Shown here: piece after piece, positions 4,698-45,256 of the stretch
How positions within the stretch are numbered: position 1 is the stretch's first letter
Layout: every line of letters begins with the position of its first letter
Source of the DNA: Patescibacteria group bacterium
GTDB taxonomy: Bacteria; Patescibacteriota; Microgenomatia; UBA8517
Assembly (NCBI GenBank): GCA_041742135.1
Contig: JBGSJG010000008.1
Span: 162,902 to 226,901 of the forward strand
Length of the DNA stretch: 64,000 nt
Reading direction: 5' to 3'
Position numbers and translations under genes: made by a program
The notes under the pieces: generated by a model
Told to the model about the DNA's origin: nothing
What the model saw: only the letters and a program-made list of their open reading frames with translations
The model's database searches: none

Positions 4698-5918
4698 GTG
4701 GGATACTTCAAAACTGCAGTCTACGGCGTAAGTTGGGTAGGGGCTTTTCGAATGTCGACACGGGGCATTGCGTTTGTGCGCACTTTGATCTTGGCTCGCA
4801 TACTTAGTCCAACTGATTTCGGAATTTTTGGCATTGCTTCGCTAGTAATAGTTTTTTTGGAAATATTAACCGAAACGGGGATTAACGTCTTCTTGATTCA
4901 GCGCAAAGAACCAATAGACAAATACTTGGGAACAGCCTGGATTGTGTCAATCGCTCGCGGTATCGCGATATTTTTAGTGATTCTTGCATTAGCATCGCCC
5001 GTTTCAGTGTTTTTTAATTCACCCCAGAGCAAAAACGCCATAGAGCTCATAAGCTTGGTCGCACTGATTCGGGGCTTCATAAATCCCGCAATTGTGAACT
5101 TTCAGAAAGATCTCCGTTTTTCAAGCGAGTTTTGGTTTAAGTTTGTTGTTTTTATGTTTGATTCTACTGTCGCCGTAGCTTTGGCTGTCCATCTTGGATC
5201 TGCAATCGGAATTGTTTGGGGTTTAGTCGCCGGAGCAGTGCTTGAACTCGTGATGTCATATTTATTTGTCCGCCCATGGCCAAGACTGGCGTTTGCCAAA
5301 AGCCAACTGCGAGAAATAGTTTCAAAAGGTAAATGGCTTACGGGAGCTGGAATTTTTCAATTTCTTTTTAGGCAAGGCGACGATGCTGTGGTGGGGAAGA
5401 TGCTCGGAGAAGGCTCGCTCGGCATTTACCAGGTAGCATACAAAATCGCGACGCTTCCAATCTCTGAGGTAACTGATGTTGTAGGCAGAGTCACATTACC
5501 CGTATATGTAAAGATTTCTGGCGATACAGTGAGGCTTAGGAAAGCATTTTTCAAGAGCACAGCGGTTATTTCGCTACTCGCACTTGCCTTAGGTACAATT
5601 TTACTGATTTTTGGTGAATTTATTGTCAATGTATTTTTGGGGCCTTCTTGGGTAGAAATTGTTCCTCTGATTAAAATTCTGGTAGTTTTTGGTGTAATTC
5701 AAGCAATTACAAATTCTTTCAACTCTTTAATGTTGGCGCAGGGGAAGCAAAAGTTTGTAAGTGCGGTGACACTGCTTAACATTTTTGGTTTGGCGATCTC
5801 AATAATTCCATTGACTCAAAACTTCGGATTACAAGGTGCTGCTCTTTCTCCCTTGGTGGGTAGTGTATTAGGCTTGCCTGTTGCCGTATATTTAACCAAC
5901 AAATGCTTACGAGCGTAA
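4698..5918 (+). CDS. Polysaccharide biosynthesis protein / oligosaccharide flippase (MOP/Wzx-like)
   Basis: A 406-aa polytopic membrane protein of Wzx-like architecture, immediately upstream of a GT2 and a ligase-like gene. Confidence 0.6.
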   Translation: MGYFKTAVYGVSWVGAFRMSTRGIAFVRTLILARILSPTDFGIFGIASLVIVFLEILTETGINVFLIQRKEPIDKYLGTAWIVSIARGIAIFLVILALASPVSVFFNSPQSKNAIELISLVALIRGFINPAIVNFQKDLRFSSEFWFKFVVFMFDSTVAVALAVHLGSAIGIVWGLVAGAVLELVMSYLFVRPWPRLAFAKSQLREIVSKGKWLTGAGIFQFLFRQGDDAVVGKMLGEGSLGIYQVAYKIATLPISEVTDVVGRVTLPVYVKISGDTVRLRKAFFKSTAVISLLALALGTILLIFGEFIVNVFLGPSWVEIVPLIKILVVFGVIQAITNSFNSLMLAQGKQKFVSAVTLLNIFGLAISIIPLTQNFGLQGAALSPLVGSVLGLPVAVYLTNKCLRA

Positions 5919-6658
5919 TAATAGCCAAAAACGAAGAAGCCACTATAGCCAAAAGGCTGAAAGAGCTTTCTTTTTGTGATGAAAAAATTGTAATAGACGA
6001 TTATTCAAGTGACAAGACGATCGAGATTGCAAAACAAAACGCTGCAAAGGTGTACAAAAGACATTTAAATGGAGATTTTTCCGCTCAGAGAAACTTTGCG
6101 CTTACTCGGGCAAAAGGGGATTGGGTACTTTTTGTCGACGCTGACGAGTCGGTGAATTCGTCGCTTCGGGCAGAAATTAAAACGGCAGTAGAAAGCAAAT
6201 CGTGTGATGGCTATTATTTAAGACGTCAAGATAGTTTTGTGGGCCGCAATCTTACGGCGGGAGATTGGGGAGAGAAGAAACTGTTGAGACTTGCCAGAAA
6301 AAATGCTGGTACTTGGAGGCGAGCGGTGCACGAAGGGTGGGAGGTAAGCGGAAAAATAGGAACGCTTACTGCCCCACTACTCCACTCCCCTTTCGAAAAC
6401 TTACATGATTTTTTTAATAAAATAAGTTTTTACTTTCCCATCCACGCCATAAGTAACGCTCAGGAAGGCAAAAATGCGAATTTTTTTAAAATTATTTTTA
6501 TGCCTTTTGCTAAGTTTGTTTGGGTTTTTGTGATTAAAAGGGGATTAACAGACGGCACTCACGGGTTTGTGTATGCTACAGGAATGTCATTTCACTCGTT
6601 TTTGGCTTGGAGTAGTTTATGGCTAGAATCACGAAATCAAAAATCCAGGACGCGCTAA
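5903..6658 (+). CDS. Family 2 glycosyltransferase
   Basis: VIIAKNEE...IVIDDYSSDKT...FVDADE matches the GT2 DxD-type N-terminal fold. Confidence 0.75.
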   Translation: MLTSVIIAKNEEATIAKRLKELSFCDEKIVIDDYSSDKTIEIAKQNAAKVYKRHLNGDFSAQRNFALTRAKGDWVLFVDADESVNSSLRAEIKTAVESKSCDGYYLRRQDSFVGRNLTAGDWGEKKLLRLARKNAGTWRRAVHEGWEVSGKIGTLTAPLLHSPFENLHDFFNKISFYFPIHAISNAQEGKNANFFKIIFMPFAKFVWVFVIKRGLTDGTHGFVYATGMSFHSFLAWSSLWLESRNQKSRTR

Positions 6659-7764
6659 CGCTATTAACTTTGGCAATTTTCCCACTAGGCCAATTGCCAG
6701 GGGTATTAATGCAAAACATTCTTGCGACCGGCTTTCGTATCCACTTGCTTGACGTTTTAGCACTCTCACTTTTGATTTCATATCTTGACCGTAATTCCTT
6801 GGTTAAGCTTAAAAAAATGCTGCTGCCAACTGTCGCAGTCCTTGTGTTCTCGTCACTATTGTCACTTGCGACTGGGTTTTTTGGCTTTGAAGGGATGATG
6901 TATTTAGTTAGGCTCTTGGTTTATCTGAGTTTGTTTGTGGTTTTTCCAAAACGTAATTTAGCCACACCCCTACTTCTGACTAGTATTGTCCTGGCCTGTT
7001 TTGGATGGCTTCAGTACTTTGTTTTTGCCGATCTTACGGCGCTTAAGTATTTTGGCTGGGATGATCATTATTTCAGAATGGTCTCGACATTTTTGGACCC
7101 AGCATTCTTCGGAGTTCTAATGGTTTTGTTTACACTTCTTTCAATTGAGCGCTTTATAAAAACTCGAAGTGCAGTGTTTGTAGCAACTTCATTATTTCTG
7201 TTAACCACACTGGCTTTTACTTACTCTAGGGCAAGCTTCCTAGCTTTTGCACTTGGAGTAATAATTTTACTCTGGCGTAGGCAAAAATTACTCATACTGG
7301 GTTTTATAGCGTTTTTAGTTTTAATAGTAAACCTGCTCCCAGTGAGCCCCGGCGGGGAAGGAGTTAATTTAGCCCGAACTAATTCGATTTACCAAAAAAT
7401 TGATAACTACCGCGAAAGCGCGCAAATAATCGGACTTTCTCCTGTTTTTGGTGTGGGCTTTAACAACGTCTGTACAGCAAAAAATGAGCGTGGTTTTGTG
7501 TCAGGTGTCAATTCGTGCCACGGATTGGATAATAGTGTTTTGTTTACTCTGGCAACAACTGGAGTTGTCGGTTTGGCAATCATATCGCTTTTCATCGCGA
7601 AAACTATGAAAAGTGCAATTTTAGCTTCTAGTCGAGGCTTAATAACATCATCGATGTCTGCAGTTTTACTACATTCCATGTTTTCTAACACCGCCTATTA
7701 TCCCTGGGTATTGTTTTATTTAGTAATATTACTTAGCTCAGAAGAGTTTATTGAGCGTAAGTGA
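6619..7764 (+). CDS. O-antigen ligase/polymerase-like membrane protein (Wzy/WaaL family)
   Basis: About 10 TM helices with a TYSRASFLAFALG block typical of O-antigen ligase family loops. Confidence 0.55.
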   Translation: MARITKSKIQDALTLLTLAIFPLGQLPGVLMQNILATGFRIHLLDVLALSLLISYLDRNSLVKLKKMLLPTVAVLVFSSLLSLATGFFGFEGMMYLVRLLVYLSLFVVFPKRNLATPLLLTSIVLACFGWLQYFVFADLTALKYFGWDDHYFRMVSTFLDPAFFGVLMVLFTLLSIERFIKTRSAVFVATSLFLLTTLAFTYSRASFLAFALGVIILLWRRQKLLILGFIAFLVLIVNLLPVSPGGEGVNLARTNSIYQKIDNYRESAQIIGLSPVFGVGFNNVCTAKNERGFVSGVNSCHGLDNSVLFTLATTGVVGLAIISLFIAKTMKSAILASSRGLITSSMSAVLLHSMFSNTAYYPWVLFYLVILLSSEEFIERK

Positions 7765-25239: not shown

Positions 25240-25267
25240 TTGCTTCTTTTTTTATTCGGGTTATGAT
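25240..25267 (+). promoter_or_regulatory. Candidate ruvC promoter (-35 TTGCTT, -10 TATGAT) with TTCGGGTT motif in spacer
   Basis: TTCGGGTT at 25255-25262, about 15 nt upstream of the ruvC ATG. The same 8-mer occurs in the lexA and uvrA promoters. Confidence 0.35.
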
Positions 25268-25276
25268 GAATGTAGA

Positions 25277-25777
25277 ATGATTGTACTCGGGATTGATCCC
25301 GGAACCGCCACTACGGGATATTCGATCCTTGAAGTCAATGGACACGGGCTAATTCCTTTGGAATTTGATCTTATCGAAACGGCCAAAACCTTCACCCACG
25401 CCGAAAGGTTAAGCATGATTTATGATCACACTAAAGAGATTATTCGCGTCAATCATCCTGATGTAATGGCTATCGAGAAAATCTTCTTTTCAAATAACGC
25501 AAAAACTGCAATATCTGTTGGCCAGGCACAGGGAGTGATGTTTTTGGCTGCGGCTGATTTTAAGCTTCCCATTGCAGAATACGCTCCGGGGACGATTAAG
25601 AAAATTGTATCGGGCAACGGGCGCGCAGATAAAAAAGAAGTACAACGTGCGCTAAGAGAAATTTTTGGCGCCAAGGTGAGAAGCAAGGCTAAAAAGAAGA
25701 CTCATTTCGACAACGCGGCAGACGCCTTAGCGGTGGCCTATTGCCATGTTATGATTACTCACAATGCGCAGGCGTAA
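25277..25777 (+). CDS. ruvC: Holliday junction resolvase RuvC
   Basis: MIVLGIDPGTATTGYSILE..., AIEKIFF and DNAADALAVAYCH catalytic acidic residues. Confidence 0.85.
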   Translation: MIVLGIDPGTATTGYSILEVNGHGLIPLEFDLIETAKTFTHAERLSMIYDHTKEIIRVNHPDVMAIEKIFFSNNAKTAISVGQAQGVMFLAAADFKLPIAEYAPGTIKKIVSGNGRADKKEVQRALREIFGAKVRSKAKKKTHFDNAADALAVAYCHVMITHNAQA

Positions 25778-34879: not shown

Positions 34880-35509
34880 TCAAATAGCCTGATACTTCCG
34901 GATTAACCCCACCACTTTTCCTTGAATTGTTACGTTTTTGACAAAGATCGGAGACATTGCGCTGTTGGCCGGCTCCAAGCGAATTCTGGTTGCTTCTTTG
35001 AAAAATCTTTTGAGTGTTGCTGTACCATTTTCTAAAAGCGCAACAACTATTTGGCCGTTCCTGGCTTCAGCAGTTTCTTCGATTACTACATAATCTCCGT
35101 CACGAATCTGCTCTTCGATCATCGATTCGCCCCGCACTTGCAAAACATAAACTCTTTTTTTGCTGGATACAAACGATGGTCCGATTGTCATTTTTGCGTG
35201 CGGATCAGTGTGAGGCTCGATTGGCCTTCCTGCCGCGATAAATCCTAGGATTGGAACTTCGACGGCTTTCTCTGAAACGAAATCAACGGTTTTATCTACA
35301 AGTTCGATTCCGCGGGTTTTGCCGCCTTTGCGTTTGATTATCCCTTTGGTTTGAAGTGATTCCAAGTGTTCATGAACTGTTGCCAAAGAAGAAACTCCGA
35401 TTGCATCTGCAATTTGGCGAAGTGTAGGAGCTGTTTGGTTTGCCTGAATGAATTGCTGAATAAAATCAACTATTTGCCTTTGGCGCTTATATAAAATAGG
35501 TGCTTGCAT
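34880..35509 (-). CDS. lexA: LexA repressor
   Basis: wHTH N-terminus (LTKRQREI-like QRQIVDF, TLRQIADAIG), S24 peptidase domain GESM, and cleavage-site region AAG at PILGFIAAG. Confidence 0.85.
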   Translation of the reverse strand: MQAPILYKRQRQIVDFIQQFIQANQTAPTLRQIADAIGVSSLATVHEHLESLQTKGIIKRKGGKTRGIELVDKTVDFVSEKAVEVPILGFIAAGRPIEPHTDPHAKMTIGPSFVSSKKRVYVLQVRGESMIEEQIRDGDYVVIEETAEARNGQIVVALLENGTATLKRFFKEATRIRLEPANSAMSPIFVKNVTIQGKVVGLIRKYQAI

Positions 35510-35515
35510 ATAAAC

Positions 35516-35544
35516 ACTCTACAAACAAAACCCGAAGTTGTCAA
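35516..35544 (-). promoter_or_regulatory. lexA promoter (-35 TTGACA, 17-nt spacer, -10 TAGAGT, leaderless) with TTCGGGTT motif in spacer; shared divergent region with the NTase-uvrB operon
   Basis: The minus strand reads TTGACAACTTCGGGTTTTGTTTGTAGAGT and ends 7 nt before the lexA ATG. The 12-mer ACAAAACCCGAA is identical to the uvrA upstream site. Confidence 0.45.
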
Positions 35545-35575: not shown

Positions 35576-36142
35576 ATGAATAGAAAAGCTGAACTTCGGC
35601 AGATGCTGTTTTCCGACAAACGGCTGATGAGAATTTTGAGCTTGGCAAGAGAAGCTAACTTACCTAACTGGTATATCGGAGCAGGGTTGATCAGGAATTA
35701 TGTTTGGGATTTTTTACATGGGTGGCCTCAAAGAACACCGATCCGGGATGTTGATTTTATTTATTACTCTCCGGACGCAATTGATGAAGTGAGAGTTAGA
35801 GCAATGCTTGCCAAAAAGATGCCCAAGATAGATTGGGATTTAAAAAACTCGGCCTTTGTACACGCTTGGTATGCCAATAAGGGGATCGTGCGGCCCGCGC
35901 TTAAATCTTCCGAAGAAGATATCGACGGCTGGCCTGAAACCGCTTCGTGTGTTGGAGTACGTTTGCAGGCTGACGATGAACTTCTTATCTATGTACCTTA
36001 CGAGGTTGATGATTTGCTAAATATGGTTTTTAGAAGAAATAAAAATAATCAATATAGCGTAAACGAAGAAGTTTTTCGCAAAAGAGTTATTGATAAGAAG
36101 ATAAAGGAACGATGGCCAAAAGTTAAAATTATTTACGATTGA
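35576..36142 (+). CDS. Minimal nucleotidyltransferase-fold protein (Pol-beta superfamily NTase, function unknown)
   Basis: GAGLIRNYVWDFLHG...RDVDFIYY fits the hG[GS]x(9-13)DhD NTase signature. Divergent from lexA and 25 nt upstream of uvrB. Confidence 0.5.
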   Translation: MNRKAELRQMLFSDKRLMRILSLAREANLPNWYIGAGLIRNYVWDFLHGWPQRTPIRDVDFIYYSPDAIDEVRVRAMLAKKMPKIDWDLKNSAFVHAWYANKGIVRPALKSSEEDIDGWPETASCVGVRLQADDELLIYVPYEVDDLLNMVFRRNKNNQYSVNEEVFRKRVIDKKIKERWPKVKIIYD

Positions 36143-36167: not shown

Positions 36168-38201
36168 TTGGTATATAGTTCTTACGTGAGCAAATTTCAA
36201 CTTAAGTCCCGTTACAAGCCTGTTTATGACCAAAAGAGCGCCATAGAAAAATTGGTCAAGGGCGTTCGTGGGCAAAATCCATATCAAGTCCTTTTGGGAG
36301 TTACAGGCTCTGGCAAAACTTTTACAGTTGCGAATCTTATCCAAAGGCTTCAAATGCCCACATTGATTCTGTCACACAATAAAACTCTTGCCGCCCAGCT
36401 TTACCAAGAATTTCGAGATTTTTTTCCTGAAAATGCAGTTAGCTACTTTGTCAGCTATTACGACTATTATCAACCTGAGGCTTATATCCCCTCGACTGAT
36501 ACTTACATTGAAAAAGACTCTGACATCAATGAGCTTATCGACAAGCTTCGGCTTGAGGCCACCGCAAATCTCCTAACGCGCAAAGATGTAATCGTGGTGG
36601 CTTCGGTTAGCGCCATCTACAACATCGGCTCACCAAAGGAGTACGGCAAATTTGTATTTGAATTTGTTAGTGGTATGAAAATTAGCCGTGAGCAAATCAT
36701 CGATAGATTAATCGATCTTCAATACGAGCGAGGCGAATTTGGCTTTCACCGCGGCACTTTTCGTGTCCGTGGGGACACGATTTCCATCTTCCCTTCATAT
36801 CAGGATCAAGCAGTCGATGTGGAGATGAAGGGGGAGCGGATTGATACGATTACCATTAGCGACCCCATCACGGGTAAAATTTTGGAAAACTTGAAAGCCC
36901 CCTTTACGCTCTTTCCCGCGAAGCATTTCATAACTGATCCTACCAAAAACAAGACGGCTTACCAAGCAATACGAAATGATTTAAAGGATCGAATTAACTA
37001 TTTTAAATCCAACGGCCAAGAACTTGAGGCAAATAGGATCAAACAAAAAGTCACATACGACCTGGAGATGATGGAGGAAATTGGCTATGTTAAAGGCATT
37101 GAAAATTATTCTAGGTATTTTGACGGCAGATCTCCGGGGGACGCGCCAAATTCTTTGCTGGAATACTTCAATGAAGCTTATGGTAAAGACTGGCTTGTAG
37201 TGGTTGATGAGAGCCATATAGGTTTTCCCCAAATTCGTGGAATGTATGCAGGGGACTTGTCTCGCAAGAAAACTTTGATTGATTACGGCTTCAGGCTTCC
37301 GGCAAGTTTGGATAATCGGCCCCTGACTTTTGATGAGTTTATGCGACGAATTCCCGGATTTATCGCCACTTCTGCAACGCCCGCTGAGTGGGAAAAATCC
37401 ATGGCTGGAGAGAAAAATATTGTAGAAATGCTTCTTCGGCCAACAGGCATTCCCGATCCGGAAGTGGAAATTAGGCCAGTTAAAACTCAAGTAGCCGATG
37501 TGATCGAAGAGATTAAAAAAAGAAAAGCTTTGGGACAGCGAACTTTAGTTACTACTTTAACCAAACGAACCGCGGAAGATTTGACTGAATACTTAAAAGA
37601 ACAGGGAATTGATGTTCAGTATTTGCATTCGGATGTTCATACTTTGGACCGAACTGACATCTTGGACGATCTGCGAGCTGGAAAATACGACTGTTTGGTT
37701 GGAATAAATTTGCTTCGAGAAGGCCTTGATTTGCCCGAAGTTTCTTTGGTTGCAATACTCGATGCGGACAAGGAAGGGTTTTTGCGAAGTGACGTGACCT
37801 TGATCCAGACCATGGGCCGCGCAGCCAGACATATCGATGGCCATGTGATTATGTATGCTGATCGCATCACAGGCTCTATGAAGCGAGCGTTGGACGAGGT
37901 CAAAAGACGCCGTGAATATCAGTTCTCAGTTAATAAAAAGTACGGGATAACGCCGACTCCGATTACCAAGCCAATCAGGGAAAAACTGGTGGATCGAGAA
38001 GTGGAAGCGGCAAGCCTTGCAATGGAAGATCGGGATATTGTTTATGCCAGACTGCCGGATATTGATCTAAATGCACTAACTCCGATGGATAAGAAAAAAC
38101 TTGCCAAAAAGCTCAAGCGAGAGATGAAGATTGCAGCCGAGGAACTTAATTTTGAACTTGCTATACAAATTCGTGACAAAGTTCACGAATTGGAAAACTG
38201 A
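36168..38201 (+). CDS. uvrB: Excinuclease ABC subunit B
   Basis: Helicase motifs (GVTGSGKT Walker A, DESH), beta-hairpin and C-terminal UVR domain (ELAIQIRDKVHELE). Confidence 0.9.
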   Translation: MVYSSYVSKFQLKSRYKPVYDQKSAIEKLVKGVRGQNPYQVLLGVTGSGKTFTVANLIQRLQMPTLILSHNKTLAAQLYQEFRDFFPENAVSYFVSYYDYYQPEAYIPSTDTYIEKDSDINELIDKLRLEATANLLTRKDVIVVASVSAIYNIGSPKEYGKFVFEFVSGMKISREQIIDRLIDLQYERGEFGFHRGTFRVRGDTISIFPSYQDQAVDVEMKGERIDTITISDPITGKILENLKAPFTLFPAKHFITDPTKNKTAYQAIRNDLKDRINYFKSNGQELEANRIKQKVTYDLEMMEEIGYVKGIENYSRYFDGRSPGDAPNSLLEYFNEAYGKDWLVVVDESHIGFPQIRGMYAGDLSRKKTLIDYGFRLPASLDNRPLTFDEFMRRIPGFIATSATPAEWEKSMAGEKNIVEMLLRPTGIPDPEVEIRPVKTQVADVIEEIKKRKALGQRTLVTTLTKRTAEDLTEYLKEQGIDVQYLHSDVHTLDRTDILDDLRAGKYDCLVGINLLREGLDLPEVSLVAILDADKEGFLRSDVTLIQTMGRAARHIDGHVIMYADRITGSMKRALDEVKRRREYQFSVNKKYGITPTPITKPIREKLVDREVEAASLAMEDRDIVYARLPDIDLNALTPMDKKKLAKKLKREMKIAAEELNFELAIQIRDKVHELEN

Positions 38202-38964: not shown

Positions 38965-39195
38965 GTGGCAAAGAAAAACGGTAACGATCAATTTGTAACA
39001 AGGTCGATGTTAGACGAGGCAGTTGAGGCGATTCTGGCAGGTATGCAAAAAATGTTCGATCGTCAATCAAAAAGTATTGATAATTTAGAGGCTAAAGTGG
39101 ACAACGGATATGTGCAGTTAAGGCACGAGATTCGTGATCTACGCCATGATACCCCGAGTAAACAAGAATTCAACGATCTTAAATCTTCTCTGTAA
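38965..39195 (+). CDS. Hypothetical small coiled-coil protein
   Basis: 76-aa ORF directly upstream of the uvrA promoter. No family. Confidence 0.3.
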   Translation: MAKKNGNDQFVTRSMLDEAVEAILAGMQKMFDRQSKSIDNLEAKVDNGYVQLRHEIRDLRHDTPSKQEFNDLKSSL

Positions 39196-39200
39196 TTTAC

Positions 39201-39231
39201 TTACAAAACCCGAAACTTTTTGTGGTACAAT
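39201..39231 (+). promoter_or_regulatory. Candidate uvrA promoter (-35 TTACAA, extended -10 TGgTACAAT) with ACAAAACCCGAA motif in spacer
   Basis: The motif at 39203-39214 is identical as a 12-mer to the lexA site. The probable real start codon is the ATG at 39234 or 39243. Confidence 0.4.
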
Positions 39232-42164
39232 TTATGGTTGCAATGACCCAGGAGTATATACAGGTCAGAGGTGCACGCCAGCACAACCTCAAAAATATTG
39301 ATATCGATATCCCGAAGAACCAGCTAGTGGTTTTTACGGGAGTATCGGGTAGTGGCAAAAGTTCGATGGCTTTTGATACCATATACGCCGAAGGCCAAAG
39401 GCGCTACGTAGAAAGCCTAAGTACTTACGCCCGCCAATTTTTAGGAATTATGGGCAAGCCAGATGTGGATTCTATTTCCGGGCTTTCTCCTGCAATTTCA
39501 ATTGATCAAAAAACGGTTTCTCATAACCCCAGATCTACAGTCGGAACTGTTACTGAAATTTATGATTACATGCGGCTTTTGTGGGCGCGTGCGGGGCATC
39601 CTCATTGTCCGATTTGTGGCCGCGAAATTGCATCCCAATCGGTTGACCAAATTAAAGATGCAATTCTTGCGCTGATCAGATCGACCGCTAAGAAAGATAA
39701 ACGCGCGAGGTTTTTAATTTTGTCGCCAATTGCCCGCGACCGAAAAGGCGAGTTTAGCGCACTTTTTGAAAATCTCAAGGCCAAAGGCTACAAGCGCGTG
39801 CGGATCGACAACATAATTAAAGACCTTGATGAAGACTTCGTTTTAATTAAGACCAACAAGCACTCAATCGATGCTGTAATTGATAGAATCTCGGCAGTTG
39901 AGTCTGACTTGAAAGATGAAGTGTTTGCTAAAAACCTCGAGAATCGACTGGCTGACAGCATCGAACAGGCTTTGAAACTTTCCGAAGGCATGGTAATTGC
40001 GGCGAATATTTTAGACGCCGGGTTTGAAATGCCTGACTTTCCCAAGCAGTTTGAAAACCATCTTTATTCAGAGAAATTTGCCTGTCCGGTCGATAACATT
40101 AATTTGCCCGAAATTGAGCCACGAACGTTTTCCTTTAATTCCCCTCATGGGGCTTGCCCAGATTGTTCGGGACTTGGGAAAATTCTTAAAGTTGACGTCA
40201 AGCTTATTATCGCCCCCGAGCTTTCCATTATGGAAGGCGGAATTATTCCTTATGCCGGCTCGATGGAGCACGACACTTGGCTTTCGAGGCTTGTTTTAAC
40301 AGTGCTTCGCGAGAATGGCGTCGATACATCAATGCCTCTTAAAAAGTATTCCGACGAGCAGAAGAAGATTTTACTTGAGGGCACGGGAAATATAACTTAT
40401 CGAGTGGAAGGCAAAAATCGTTTTGGCAAAACTACTTATATCACTGAAGCTTGGCCCGGAGTTTTGACGGAGCTTGAGCGCAGATATGTTTCAAGTGACT
40501 CGGATTATATAAAGATGGGCATCGAGCGTTATATGACTGAGGTTGTTTGTAAAAGTTGCAGTGGTGCGAGGCTCAAAAAAGAAGCGCTTGGAATTACGAT
40601 TGATGGCAAATCGATTAGCGAAATTTCAGAGCTGTCGACTGTGAAAATGATTGACTGGATGGAGAAGCTGGCCACTAGCAAAATTCTGTCGGCTCGCGAG
40701 CATGAAATTGTGAGTTTGGTGATCAAAGAAATTAGAACCAGACTTAATTTTTTGGTTGATGTGGGCTTAAATTATTTGACTATCGCGCGCGCCGCTTATA
40801 GTCTTTCTGGTGGAGAGGCTCAGAGAATTCGATTGGCCAGCCAAATTGGCTCAGGTTTAACTGGAGTTTTATATGTCTTGGACGAGCCAACCATCGGCCT
40901 TCATCCGCGGGATAACGCGCTATTAATTTCCACTCTTAAAAAAATGAGGGATTTGGGAAATACGGTTGTCGTGGTGGAGCATGATAAAGACGTCATCGAG
41001 TCCTCAGATTATATTTTTGATTTTGGCCCGGGAGCTGGCAAGCATGGCGGGGGAGTTGTGGCCCAAGGCACTTTGACACAGCTATTAAGCGATCAAGACT
41101 CCTTGACTGCAAAATATCTAAGCGGCAGGCGTGAAATTCGCTTTGCCAAAACTAATAATCCCAATGTTACTGGGAAAATCACTCTACGCGGTGCCTCGCT
41201 GTACAATTTGAAAGGCATAGATTTTAGCTTTCCCTTGGGCAAATTTGTTGCAGTCACCGGAGTTTCGGGGTCGGGAAAGTCTACACTTGTTGTCGAAACG
41301 CTATACCACGCACTTGCCAAGTCGGTCAATAAATATCACAAAGAGCCCTCTGGAATTTACGAATCAATTGAGGGAACCCAAAATATTGATAAAGTAGTTC
41401 TGATCGACCAATCTCCAATAGGTCGCACCCCGAGAAGCAATCCAGCGACTTATACAAAAGTATTTGACTTAATTCGCGATGTCTTTGCCGGTACCCGCGA
41501 GGCTCGTGTGATGGGATTTAAAAAAGGTCGATTTTCCTTTAACGTCAAAGGTGGCCGTTGTGAAGTCTGCGAAGGGCAAGGAAAAATCAAAATAGAAATG
41601 CAATTTATGCCCGATATTTGGGTACCTTGTGAGCTTTGCCATGGCAGCCGCTATAACGCCTCAACTTTGGAAGTGACTTATAAAGGCAAAAATATTGCCG
41701 AAGTTTTGTCTATGACAGTCGAGGAAGCAGTTGAATTTTTCCATGTTTACAAGAACATCTCAGAGAAACTCGAGACTCTAAAGGAGGTCGGTTTAAATTA
41801 TATGGAACTGGGGCAATCTGCGACAACCCTTTCTGGAGGTGAAGCTCAGAGGGTCAAGCTTGCGACAGAGCTATCTAAAAAAGCTACTGGTAAAACAGTT
41901 TACATTTTAGATGAGCCGACAACGGGTCTGCATTTTGCAGATTTGGAAAAGCTTGTCGCCGTTCTTAAAATTCTTGTTGAGCGCGGCAACACTGTTGTTG
42001 TGATTGAGCACAATTTGGATGTTATAAAAAATGCTGATTGGGTAATTGAGATGGGCCCCGAAGGGGGAGACGGCGGCGGCAAAATAATCGCAGAAGGGAC
42101 ACCTGAAGATCTTGCTCGTATGGATACTCATACCTCGCGATTCCTTCGAAGCGTAGTAAAATAG
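39222..42164 (+). CDS. uvrA: Excinuclease ABC subunit A
   Basis: Two ABC ATPase modules (GVSGSGKSS... and GVSGSGKSTL), LSGGEAQR signatures and zinc-finger cysteines. The start is probably an internal ATG (39234 or 39243), not the GTG at 39222. Confidence 0.9.
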   Translation: MVQFMVAMTQEYIQVRGARQHNLKNIDIDIPKNQLVVFTGVSGSGKSSMAFDTIYAEGQRRYVESLSTYARQFLGIMGKPDVDSISGLSPAISIDQKTVSHNPRSTVGTVTEIYDYMRLLWARAGHPHCPICGREIASQSVDQIKDAILALIRSTAKKDKRARFLILSPIARDRKGEFSALFENLKAKGYKRVRIDNIIKDLDEDFVLIKTNKHSIDAVIDRISAVESDLKDEVFAKNLENRLADSIEQALKLSEGMVIAANILDAGFEMPDFPKQFENHLYSEKFACPVDNINLPEIEPRTFSFNSPHGACPDCSGLGKILKVDVKLIIAPELSIMEGGIIPYAGSMEHDTWLSRLVLTVLRENGVDTSMPLKKYSDEQKKILLEGTGNITYRVEGKNRFGKTTYITEAWPGVLTELERRYVSSDSDYIKMGIERYMTEVVCKSCSGARLKKEALGITIDGKSISEISELSTVKMIDWMEKLATSKILSAREHEIVSLVIKEIRTRLNFLVDVGLNYLTIARAAYSLSGGEAQRIRLASQIGSGLTGVLYVLDEPTIGLHPRDNALLISTLKKMRDLGNTVVVVEHDKDVIESSDYIFDFGPGAGKHGGGVVAQGTLTQLLSDQDSLTAKYLSGRREIRFAKTNNPNVTGKITLRGASLYNLKGIDFSFPLGKFVAVTGVSGSGKSTLVVETLYHALAKSVNKYHKEPSGIYESIEGTQNIDKVVLIDQSPIGRTPRSNPATYTKVFDLIRDVFAGTREARVMGFKKGRFSFNVKGGRCEVCEGQGKIKIEMQFMPDIWVPCELCHGSRYNASTLEVTYKGKNIAEVLSMTVEEAVEFFHVYKNISEKLETLKEVGLNYMELGQSATTLSGGEAQRVKLATELSKKATGKTVYILDEPTTGLHFADLEKLVAVLKILVERGNTVVVIEHNLDVIKNADWVIEMGPEGGDGGGKIIAEGTPEDLARMDTHTSRFLRSVVK

Positions 42165-42167
42165 ACA

Positions 42168-43967
42168 ATGCGTAAAGCGTTACTTGTCGCAATTATTCTT
42201 TTCTCTTCAATTTTTCCAGCTACTACAAATGCGTCCGAAAACTTTCTATTGGCTTCTGAGGTGACATATGAAGTTTTGGAATCAGGCAGCACTAAAATTT
42301 CTCACTTAATTTCTTTGACAAATGCGGTAACTGAGATTCACGCCACTGACTACACACTTGCACTAAAAGGAGCAAAACCAAGTAGTGTCGAAGCCTATGA
42401 GGATAAAGCGAAGCTTCAGACAGAATTAAGTTATGACGGAGACATGGCTTTAGTGAAAGTAATTTTTGATGAGCCGGTGGTTGGCGTGGGCCAAAAAAGA
42501 GAGTTTAGCGTGAACTACCTTGATGCTTCCATAGTTAAGTCTGCAGGTGACGTCGACGAGATTACGGTTCCTAGGCTTGCAGATGAAACTGAGTACGAGT
42601 CCTATCTCGTGCGCCTTAAAATTCCCACCAGTTTTGGCCGTGCCAGCTATGTTTCTCCAGAGCCGGACAATGTGCTTTCCGACGCAAGTGTCACAACATA
42701 TTACTTTAATAAATCGAAACTCAATACTGCGGGAGTAACTGCCGCAATTGGCGACTTTCAGATTTTTTCTTTCGACCTGACTTATCACCTTCAAAATCCG
42801 CTCGCTGTTGGAACCAAGATGGAAATCGCGCTTCCTCCAGATACTTCTTTTCAAAAAATTATGTACGAATCTCTTAACCCGCTACCGGACAATGTTTATC
42901 AAGACGCGGACGGCAACTGGATGGCAATTTATGGCCTTGCTGCGCGCGAGAGGCTTGATGTTCGGGCAATTGGAACCGCTCAGGTTTATGCTGCAGCCTG
43001 GATGAGCGACAAGTTAAGCACTGAAGACCGGGAAGATAATTTGAAGGAAACGGAGTTTTGGCAGGTGAATGATGAGAAAATTCGCGAAGTTGCAGGAACG
43101 CTAAAAAACCCTAAAGAAATTTACGATTACGTTGTGACAACTCTGACATATAATTACGAGAAAGTTACAGAGGGACCAAAGAGGCCTGGCGCTGTACAGG
43201 CTTTAGCAAACCCATCTCTTGCAATTTGTACGGAGTTTACTGACCTTTTTATCGCTCTGGCCAGAGCCTCTGGAATTCCTGCGAGGGAAGTTAACGGCTA
43301 TGCTTATACGGACAATTCATCACTTAAGCCGCTGTCTTTGGTTAACGATGTCTTGCACGCTTGGCCGGAGTACTGGGACCACGAGGCAAGTATATGGAGG
43401 CCGGTAGACCCAACTTGGGCTAAAACGACAGGTGGCATAGATTATTTTACAAAACTTGATATGCGCCATGTGAGTTTTGTAATGCACGGCAGAAGCTCGA
43501 CGACTCCGATTCCGCCCGGATCATACAAGCTTGGCGCCAATCCCCAAAAAGACGTTTTTATTTCATTTGGCCAACTTACCCCTTCCGCGACAAGCGCGCG
43601 GCTTAACTACTATCAAGAAACAACGCTTCCTTTCGACGGCGCGAATTTGGTAATTGATATCGTCAACCCCGGTCCTGCTGCGCTTTATTCTCAAAAAGCC
43701 TCGATATATTTCGAGGACGAGCTTTACTATGAAAAAGATGTCGAGATCTTACTTCCTTTTGAAAAGCGTAAGTTGGAATTCACGATTCCATATGGATTTT
43801 TGGGAAGCCAAATGCCCGAGAAAGCCAGAATAGTTATTGGCAACACTAGCCATGAGTATAAAACGGATAAAGCTCCAGCAGTATTTAGAGATTTATTTTC
43901 GATCCTATTAATCTCAGGAATTGGGCTACTTTCCGTGTTTATAATAGTCAAGAAATTAAGAAAATGA
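42168..43967 (+). CDS. Extracytoplasmic transglutaminase-like cysteine protease domain protein (signal peptide, C-terminal TM anchor)
   Basis: Core Cys-His-Asp context: CTEFTDLFIALARASGIPAR...HAWPEYW...VDPT. Also an N-terminal signal peptide and a C-terminal hydrophobic anchor. Confidence 0.65.
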   Translation: MRKALLVAIILFSSIFPATTNASENFLLASEVTYEVLESGSTKISHLISLTNAVTEIHATDYTLALKGAKPSSVEAYEDKAKLQTELSYDGDMALVKVIFDEPVVGVGQKREFSVNYLDASIVKSAGDVDEITVPRLADETEYESYLVRLKIPTSFGRASYVSPEPDNVLSDASVTTYYFNKSKLNTAGVTAAIGDFQIFSFDLTYHLQNPLAVGTKMEIALPPDTSFQKIMYESLNPLPDNVYQDADGNWMAIYGLAARERLDVRAIGTAQVYAAAWMSDKLSTEDREDNLKETEFWQVNDEKIREVAGTLKNPKEIYDYVVTTLTYNYEKVTEGPKRPGAVQALANPSLAICTEFTDLFIALARASGIPAREVNGYAYTDNSSLKPLSLVNDVLHAWPEYWDHEASIWRPVDPTWAKTTGGIDYFTKLDMRHVSFVMHGRSSTTPIPPGSYKLGANPQKDVFISFGQLTPSATSARLNYYQETTLPFDGANLVIDIVNPGPAALYSQKASIYFEDELYYEKDVEILLPFEKRKLEFTIPYGFLGSQMPEKARIVIGNTSHEYKTDKAPAVFRDLFSILLISGIGLLSVFIIVKKLRK

Positions 43968-45256
43968 AGACTTTTGCTGCTGAGAAAAAAAACGTTAAAT
44001 TGTTGCCACATGCTCCGGGAGTGTATATGTTTCGTGATGACCAAAAGGTAATTTACATCGGCAAGGCCAAGAACTTATTTAATCGCGTTGGCTCATATTT
44101 TATGAAGGATTTGGAACTTAAGACCTCGCGCATGGTGGCAAGTGCCAAGACGATTTCGTATATCCCCGTTGAGTCAGAATTTGAAGCCTTGCTTTTGGAG
44201 GCAAAACTCGTCAATAAAAATAAGCCTAAATACAACATCGAACTTCGAGATGACAAAAGCCCGTTATATATTGGTATAACCCGAGACGAACTGCCTCGAG
44301 TAATTTTGTTGCGCCAGAAAGAGCTGGCCAGCGCAAAGCTTAAAAATGTTTATGGACCTTTTATAAATTCAACAAGTCCCAAATTGGTTCTTAAAATGAT
44401 ACGAAGAATTTTTCCATTCGGGACACATAAGCCCACCAAGCGTGCCTGTGTCGACAACCAAATCGGCTTATGCAATCCCTGTCCTTCAGAAGTATTGGCG
44501 GATCCAAGTTTGCGCCGTGAATATTTATTAAATATTCGACGAACTAACGCGATATTATCTGGAAAATCAAAACAAGTATTATTGCAACTTCAATCATCTC
44601 GTGACAAGTTTTCAAAAGAGGAAAAGTTTGAAGAAGCTCGAGAAGTGTCGAGTAAAATTCGCGCACTCGAATATACTGTCAGCCGGCGTGAGCTAAATGA
44701 CTCATACTTGGAAAACCCCAATCTTTTGGAAGATATTAGAAAAAAGGAAACCGATCAGTTGGGCAAAATAATAAACAAATTTATAAAAACCCGTCAACTT
44801 AGGCGCATTGAGTGCTTTGATATTGCACATTTGTCTGGAACGTATCCGACCGCATCAATGGTTACTTTTGTCGATGGAGAACCGGACAAGAGTTTGTACA
44901 GACATTACAAAGTTTCCGAAGGCATAAAAAATGACGATCCGGGCTCTATGAAATCGGTTCTTGAGCGGCGAAAGTATAGATTTGATAGTTGGGGAAAGCC
45001 CGATTTAATTATTGTCGACGGAGGGCGTGGGCAGTTGTCCGCGGCTCTTGAAGTATTAGGGAACAGTGTACCGGTTGTTGGCTTAGCCAAAAAACTTGAG
45101 ACTTTGATTTTTATGACAGACAAAGGTTTTGAAGAATTTGTGCTGCCCGAAAGCTCAGCCAAAAAATTGGTTCAACGAATTCGCGATGAAGCACACCGTT
45201 TTGCTCGCTCGTATCATCACAAGCTCGTCAGTCGGGCAATTCGTGAGTCGAAATGA
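43964..45256 (+). CDS. uvrC: Excinuclease ABC subunit C, short form lacking C-terminal (HhH)2 domain
   Basis: GIY-YIG domain (PGVYMFRD...VIYIGKAKNLFNRVGSYF), UVR motif (FEEAREVSSKIRALE) and RNase-H-like endonuclease domain (IECFDIAHLSG). Only 430 aa. Confidence 0.8.
   Translation: MKTFAAEKKNVKLLPHAPGVYMFRDDQKVIYIGKAKNLFNRVGSYFMKDLELKTSRMVASAKTISYIPVESEFEALLLEAKLVNKNKPKYNIELRDDKSPLYIGITRDELPRVILLRQKELASAKLKNVYGPFINSTSPKLVLKMIRRIFPFGTHKPTKRACVDNQIGLCNPCPSEVLADPSLRREYLLNIRRTNAILSGKSKQVLLQLQSSRDKFSKEEKFEEAREVSSKIRALEYTVSRRELNDSYLENPNLLEDIRKKETDQLGKIINKFIKTRQLRRIECFDIAHLSGTYPTASMVTFVDGEPDKSLYRHYKVSEGIKNDDPGSMKSVLERRKYRFDSWGKPDLIIVDGGRGQLSAALEVLGNSVPVVGLAKKLETLIFMTDKGFEEFVLPESSAKKLVQRIRDEAHRFARSYHHKLVSRAIRESK

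Follow-up and report, generated by a model that had tools for sequence, protein, structure and literature searches.

A predicted LexA operator of the direct-repeat type at the uvrA promoter of a Candidatus Woesebacteria genome

In Escherichia coli, LexA acts at an operator that overlaps the uvrA promoter and at another through which lexA is autoregulated, and RecA-stimulated self-cleavage of the repressor brings about derepression. For the Patescibacteria, Sanchez-Osuna, Barbe and Erill are said to have described an SOS regulon and its LexA-binding motif in 2017 (reportedly in Environ Microbiol 19:3465, doi 10.1111/1462-2920.13826). As to the sequences recognised, the E. coli SOS box belongs to the class CTGT-N8-ACAG and the alphaproteobacterial LexA box to GTTC-N7-GTTC (PMC8565304), and a passage of PMC7739468, which comes from the same group as the 2017 work and cites it, describes the motif recognised by the LexA of Patescibacteria as a direct repeat. 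We have analysed a stretch of 64,000 nucleotides (the window) from a genome of Candidatus Woesebacteria (Microgenomates, Patescibacteria/CPR), in which a short site upstream of uvrA is, in our judgement, quite likely to be a LexA operator of the Woesebacteria type that represses the uvrA promoter.

The genes concerned are found in the order lexA (minus strand), an NTP_transf_6 gene, uvrB, three small ORFs, uvrA, a transglutaminase-like gene and uvrC. The lexA gene (34880-35509, minus strand) matches the TIGR00498 LexA model with 198.5 bits and its product is full length, with the wHTH (LexA_DNA_bind, PF01726) and Peptidase_S24 (PF00717) domains. There are thousands of homologs of this protein, the closest being 72-91% identical and belonging to Woesebacteria where they are named, and the A93-G94 cleavage site as well as the S129 and K167 dyad are invariant in 13 LexA homologs. 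Divergent from lexA, on the plus strand, are the NTP_transf_6 gene (35576-36142, named after its domain match) and, 3' of it, uvrB (36168-38201). The arrangement with lexA divergent from uvrB and uvrA further on is widely conserved, with uvrB directly divergent from lexA in nearly all relatives; it is only in the window genome that the NTP_transf_6 gene appears between the two, an insertion that shifts uvrB away from the shared operator.

Directly upstream of uvrA there is a small ORF of 76 aa (38965-39195, plus strand) with 36% identity to a 100-aa ORF in the same place in the relative L163, and without a family match in NCBIfam/Pfam-type domain searches. The uvrA gene itself (39243-42164, plus strand, listed as 39222-42164 in the ORF track) matches the NCBIfam UvrA equivalog with 1391 bits. 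It is followed after 3 nt by the transglutaminase-like gene (42168-43967, plus strand; 599 aa; PF01841, E = 1.6e-17), which uvrC (43964-45256, plus strand; GIY-YIG and UvrC RNase H domains) overlaps by 4 nt. Packed so tightly, the transglutaminase-like gene and uvrC are probably co-transcribed with uvrA in one operon. Read-through into uvrA from the upstream small ORF is possible. The order of the three genes is kept in about 50 related loci, which makes the transglutaminase-like protein a candidate excision-repair or DNA-damage-response factor. A search for recA within the window did not find it, and no Rfam families were found around lexA-uvrA.

The lexA promoter (35516-35544, minus strand; TTGACA-17-TAGAGT, 10 of 12 matches in a consensus scan) contains between its -35 and -10 elements the predicted LexA operator TTCGGGTTTTGTTTGTA (35520-35536, minus strand). 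The ATG of lexA lies 6 nt after the -10, so that its mRNA is probably leaderless. We compared 80 genomic loci around lexA homologs, all of them from Woesebacteria or Microgenomates, and found the promoter layout TTGACA-NN-TTCGGGTwwwrTTwGTA in 60, the box taking up the 17-nt spacer and running into the -10. The layout persists in four loci that have uvrB elsewhere (L023, L024, L031 and L051), and the motif thus belongs with lexA itself. The same box may also control the NTP_transf_6 gene and uvrB, but this is uncertain since it ends 27 nt upstream of the -10 of the NTP_transf_6 gene (TGATATACT). This latter -10, too, ends 6 nt upstream of its ATG, pointing to a second leaderless mRNA. In two close relatives (L161, 9982-9998, and L167, 9983-9999, both minus strand) the lexA leader carries, after the -10 and before the ATG, a second box in inverted orientation that forms a larger inverted pair with the primary one; the lexA leader of the window is only 6 nt long and has therefore no such second box.

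At uvrA, the preliminary description had reported the motif ACAAAACCCGAAAC (39203-39216) together with the strings TTACAA (39201-39206), TGgTACAAT (39223-39231) and ACAAAA-N9-TTTTGT (39203-39223), all of which are found at these positions. The motif is real, but both its extent and its strand had to be revised: the predicted LexA operator (SOS box) is the 17-nt sequence TTCGGGTTTTGTAAGTA, on the minus strand at 39198-39214, longer than had been described and beginning 2 nt after the stop codon of the 76-aa ORF. It has the form of a direct repeat, TTCGG-N6-TAAGT, that reads opposite to uvrA, and it is identical to the lexA box, also on the minus strand, at 15 of the 17 positions, with a second half-site (TAAGT) that is degenerate with respect to that of lexA (TTTGT). 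Within the window the 12-mer ACAAAACCCGAA is found unaltered exactly twice, beside lexA at 35525 and at 39203, 29 nt upstream of the uvrA start, and every further match needs 2 mismatches.

A weight matrix of 17 nt was built from 59 Woesebacteria lexA promoters, with the window and L001, the relative nearest to it, excluded, and both strands of the window (128 kb) were scanned with it. The lexA box was the top match with 28.3 bits and the uvrA box reached 21.8 bits, inside the range of the training sites (18.0-28.3 bits), while the next best match in the 128 kb had 8.6 bits. By exact calculation, 0.003 matches of at least 21.8 bits are expected by chance per 128 kb. The score given by a matrix of lexA promoters, along with the two exact 12-mers, bears out the earlier proposal that the second copy is the same operator as the one at lexA, and we presume, on the strength of the sequences, that the LexA encoded in the window is the repressor acting at both boxes.

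The three next-best matches in the window (8.3-8.6 bits) were rejected as boxes, as their scores are at chance level and all fall within coding sequence, two of them inside ORFs (18388 and 4858) and one inside the ATP synthase c-subunit gene (61072). We also rejected as an operator the half-site TTCGGGTTATG (25255-25265, plus strand) upstream of ruvC (25277-25777). It sits between a putative -35 and -10, with the second repeat missing; neither L163 nor L167 has kept it, its 7-mer turns up about as often as chance predicts, and it is probably no operator.

TTCGG is invariant at positions 1-5 of the training sites, whose positions 12-16 read TT[T/A/C]GT, and the second, uvrB-proximal sites of the relatives have the form TTCG-N7-TTCGG or TTYGG-N6-TTTGG. 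For these reasons the operator is, at the level of its sequence, a direct repeat, TTCGG-N6-TnnGK, whose period is 11 bp, in agreement with the direct-repeat motif in the passage of PMC7739468 mentioned above.

The predicted extended -10 of uvrA (39221-39231, plus strand; TGTGgTACAAT, that is, TRTGn and the hexamer at 39226-39231) lies 11 nt downstream of the box. This part of the promoter proposed earlier has held up well, as T.TG.TA.A.T is invariant in an alignment of 7 box-plus-promoter cassettes. The proposed -35 (TTACAA) has not: it has 3 of 6 matches to TTGACA and is separated from the -10 by a 19-nt spacer, outside what is canonical for sigma-70 (16-18 nt between the -10 and a -35 that matches in at least 4 of 6 positions), and a consensus promoter scan with 16-18 nt spacers does not call this promoter. 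The uvrA promoter looks like one of the extended -10 type without a good -35. The motif had been placed in the spacer between -35 and -10, a position that has to be abandoned as well, the box covering instead the place expected for the -35, from about -40 to -24 relative to the predicted transcription start. The idea that an operator situated here would occlude RNA polymerase stands, given that the predicted box overlaps the promoter at the -35 position.

From promoter geometry, transcription of uvrA would start at 39237-39239 (plus strand), 6-8 nt after the -10, leaving a leader of 4-6 nt without a Shine-Dalgarno sequence. Such a leader would fit this genome, as most genes of the window lack a Shine-Dalgarno sequence (something similar to one is present in only about 5 of the 49 larger ORFs); several genes of the window also have a -10 that ends 6 nt ahead of the start codon. 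The GTG at 39222 taken as the start in the ORF track had already been questioned, rightly in our opinion, for it lies upstream of the -10 hexamer, within the TRTG element, and the homologs begin at 39243. Among the two ATG codons offered in its place, the one at 39234 is unlikely, only 2 nt after the -10 hexamer, and the one at 39243 is most likely the start of uvrA, since the N-termini of the homologs align there (MTQEYIQVRGARQHNL in the window and MDYIKVRGARQHNL in L001).

LexA proteins 85-89% identical to that of the window led to closer relatives. The identical 17-mer is present at the same place before uvrA in L001/L163 and in L165, and L167 has there the variant TTCGGGTTTTATTGGCA (17.5 bits). 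In all of them TGnTATAAT follows exactly 11 nt downstream of the box, and the uvrA ATG 27-28 nt downstream. The flanks of the box have diverged among these close relatives, and the neighbour upstream is also variable, being a homolog of the 76-aa ORF, a divergent 256-aa gene or uvrB. Another relative, L161, has a box with TGTGGTAAAAT, at a spacing of 10 nt to its own extended -10 and about 173 nt upstream of the uvrA start. Between this box-bearing promoter and the start codon (about 5090-5215), the uvrA leader of L161 contains three tandem copies of a unit of ca. 26 nt, cctaaagcaaagcttgcgggcacg.

Further away, an independent box is found upstream of uvrA in each of L012, L015 and L039, and a weaker one (12.8 bits) in L042; like that of the window, all four read opposite to uvrA. 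A matrix scan of about 50 more distant relatives revealed no box upstream of uvrA, and the same is true of L082 and L083 (73% UvrA identity), the sole additions from a metagenome scan with UvrA. Hence LexA control of uvrA is, as predicted from the presence of the box, lineage-specific, and uvrA is not a universal member of the regulon in this group.

The same kind of cassette, a box followed by an extended -10, also precedes other genes. In L165 the identical 17-mer (7397-7413) is found before a Gp49/HTH_3 pair resembling the HigBA toxin-antitoxin system, and in L161 a near-identical cassette (box at 6594-6610) is found before the gene of a 434-aa protein, function not known. These occurrences suggest that membership in the regulon is variable and that cassettes have spread by duplication.

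Most other Woesebacteria have at uvrA, in place of the LexA box, a conserved stem-loop of the form CCACCGG-loop-CCGGCGGG, which comes just after TGnTATAAT and precedes the start codon by about 9 nt. It occurs, for example, in L064 (about 1001-1026), L021, L037, L040, L050, L059 and L069, and is absent from the window. Some of its pairs show compensatory changes (CTGG/CCAG, CGCG/CGCG), it matches no Rfam family, and the CCACC may sequester a Shine-Dalgarno-like sequence, the GGCGGG. L039 has both the leader hairpin and the LexA box. A separate observation concerns the GTDB records with lexA-uvrB-uvrA loci of the Woesebacteria type (L002, L003, L006, L010 and many more) that are titled "uncultured Gammaproteobacteria" or "Pseudomonadales", and that appear to be mislabelled submissions.

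Several other explanations for the uvrA site have to be considered. The box might be the operator of some other factor that co-regulates lexA, uvrB and uvrA and not be bound by LexA at all. In most genomes it is located in the divergent region shared by lexA and uvrB, so that association alone cannot name the binder. However, it stays with lexA in the four loci where uvrB is elsewhere, autoregulation through a site in its own promoter is the standard arrangement for LexA, the targets are classical SOS genes, and the LexA motif reported for Patescibacteria, as far as the passage in PMC7739468 goes, is a direct repeat; with all this we consider a different binder unlikely. What the spread of cassettes raises is another matter, namely that the box and extended -10 are a promoter cassette of ca. 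30 bp that multiplies by duplication and that the box was carried along to uvrA with little regulatory effect. Near-identical cassettes do precede unrelated genes, CACAAAACCCGAAACATTTGTGGTACAAT being found before both the 434-aa gene and uvrA in L161, and the Gp49/HTH_3 pair of L165 is a further instance. Yet from one cassette to another it is the 10-11 nt between box and -10 that change freely, the two elements themselves being invariant, as would be expected if each were selected separately, and the box persists in relatives with only 77% identity in UvrA, which makes a passive passenger quite improbable.

The inverted repeat ACAAAA-N9-TTTTGT, which the preliminary description had pointed out as appearing, with the core inside it, only at this place, could be the functional element, as an operator with two symmetric arms or else, downstream of the small ORF, as a terminator or a hairpin in RNA or DNA. 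It does exist, and 2 copies per window are more than the 0.06 expected, the second one being at 2068 and lacking the core. But L163, L165 and L167 lack the right arm, and this TTTTGT corresponds mostly to the -16 element (TRTG) that forms part of the extended -10 and to which its TGTG belongs; the arms are also spaced differently at lexA (ACAA-N9-TTGT) and at uvrA (ACAA-N13-TTGT). Besides, the stretch folds no better than shuffled sequences (z = -0.45), the minimum-energy structure does not use the repeat, and no terminator-like site was found there. A functional palindrome is accordingly very improbable. Nor do we give much more than nominal credit to a chance resemblance without function, in spite of the AT-rich, low-complexity sequence and of 7-mers such as TTCGGGT appearing at chance frequency (5 seen, about 8 expected), for only 0.003 occurrences of the full 17-mer are expected per window, uvrA, a canonical SOS gene, is no more than 45 nt away, and the fixed distance of the box to the -10 is conserved in several genomes.

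If the site is the LexA operator that we favour, a LexA dimer on 39198-39214 would block RNA polymerase at the -35 region of the uvrA promoter and keep the expression of uvrA low, and very probably that of the transglutaminase-like gene and uvrC too. On 35520-35536, LexA would autoregulate its own gene and might affect the divergent NTP_transf_6-uvrB unit. After DNA damage, RecA filaments on single-stranded DNA would stimulate LexA to cleave itself at A93-G94 by means of S129 and K167, and once the operator is vacated the operon would be transcribed with a very short leader and translated from the ATG at 39243. We infer from the sequences the physical binding of LexA, the direction of the regulation, the transcription start, the extent of the operon and the dependence on RecA.

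The preferred reading makes uvrA-tgl-uvrC (tgl being the transglutaminase-like gene) a well-supported predicted addition to the SOS regulon of an uncultivated lineage of the candidate phyla radiation. It also corrects the annotated start codon of uvrA and offers a concrete operator of 17 nt, with its promoter layout, to be used with purified LexA. Within the Woesebacteria there appears to be regulatory turnover, with a LexA box at uvrA in some lineages and a conserved leader hairpin in others. A much more ambitious interpretation, about which we are rather doubtful, is that a clade-specific, portable unit of ca. 30 bp (LexA box plus extended -10) replaced the leader hairpin of uvrA and placed the whole excision-repair set under SOS control, with an operator locked in its orientation. 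Were this so, uvrB would be under SOS control through the divergent region of lexA, and uvrA and uvrC through the uvrA box; the universally syntenic, uncharacterised transglutaminase-like protein would be SOS-controlled too, and the operator would always read away from the repressed repair gene. Such an orientation lock would suggest that the LexA dimer on its direct repeat contacts the promoter asymmetrically. The current understanding of the SOS response is not overturned by any of this, and the leader hairpin, the transglutaminase-like gene and the portable cassettes may reward follow-up more than the site itself.

Compared with the known systems, the outline is that of the E. coli uvrA box, with operators at the promoters of uvrA and lexA. 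However, the E. coli box is a 16-bp palindrome whereas that of Woesebacteria is a 17-nt direct repeat, and unlike the E. coli uvrA promoter, the one in the window is of the extended -10 type with, as predicted, a very short leader. The Woesebacteria box and that of the Alphaproteobacteria are both direct repeats with the same 11-bp period and a common TTC core, and the TTCG-N7-TTCGG of the uvrB-proximal sites in the relatives of the window can be set beside GTTC-N7-GTTC. It belongs to another lineage, though, the register of the repeat is shifted by one base, and its first repeat (TTCGG) is invariant and the second degenerate, which is not the case in the alphaproteobacterial box. Any evolutionary link between the two is speculative. 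Another close system is the SOS regulon reportedly described for Patescibacteria in 2017, from the same superphylum and with the same repressor family, whose targets are DNA-repair genes and lexA, as here. That work presumably did not cover this site and genome, and here the control of uvrA is limited to one clade and some scattered other lineages. The motif seen here, TTCGG-N6-TTWGK, agrees with the direct-repeat description in the passage of PMC7739468 and may correspond to that of the published regulon. Seen against these systems, and judging by its sequence, the uvrA box would be an ordinary, well-supported further case of a known type of switch.
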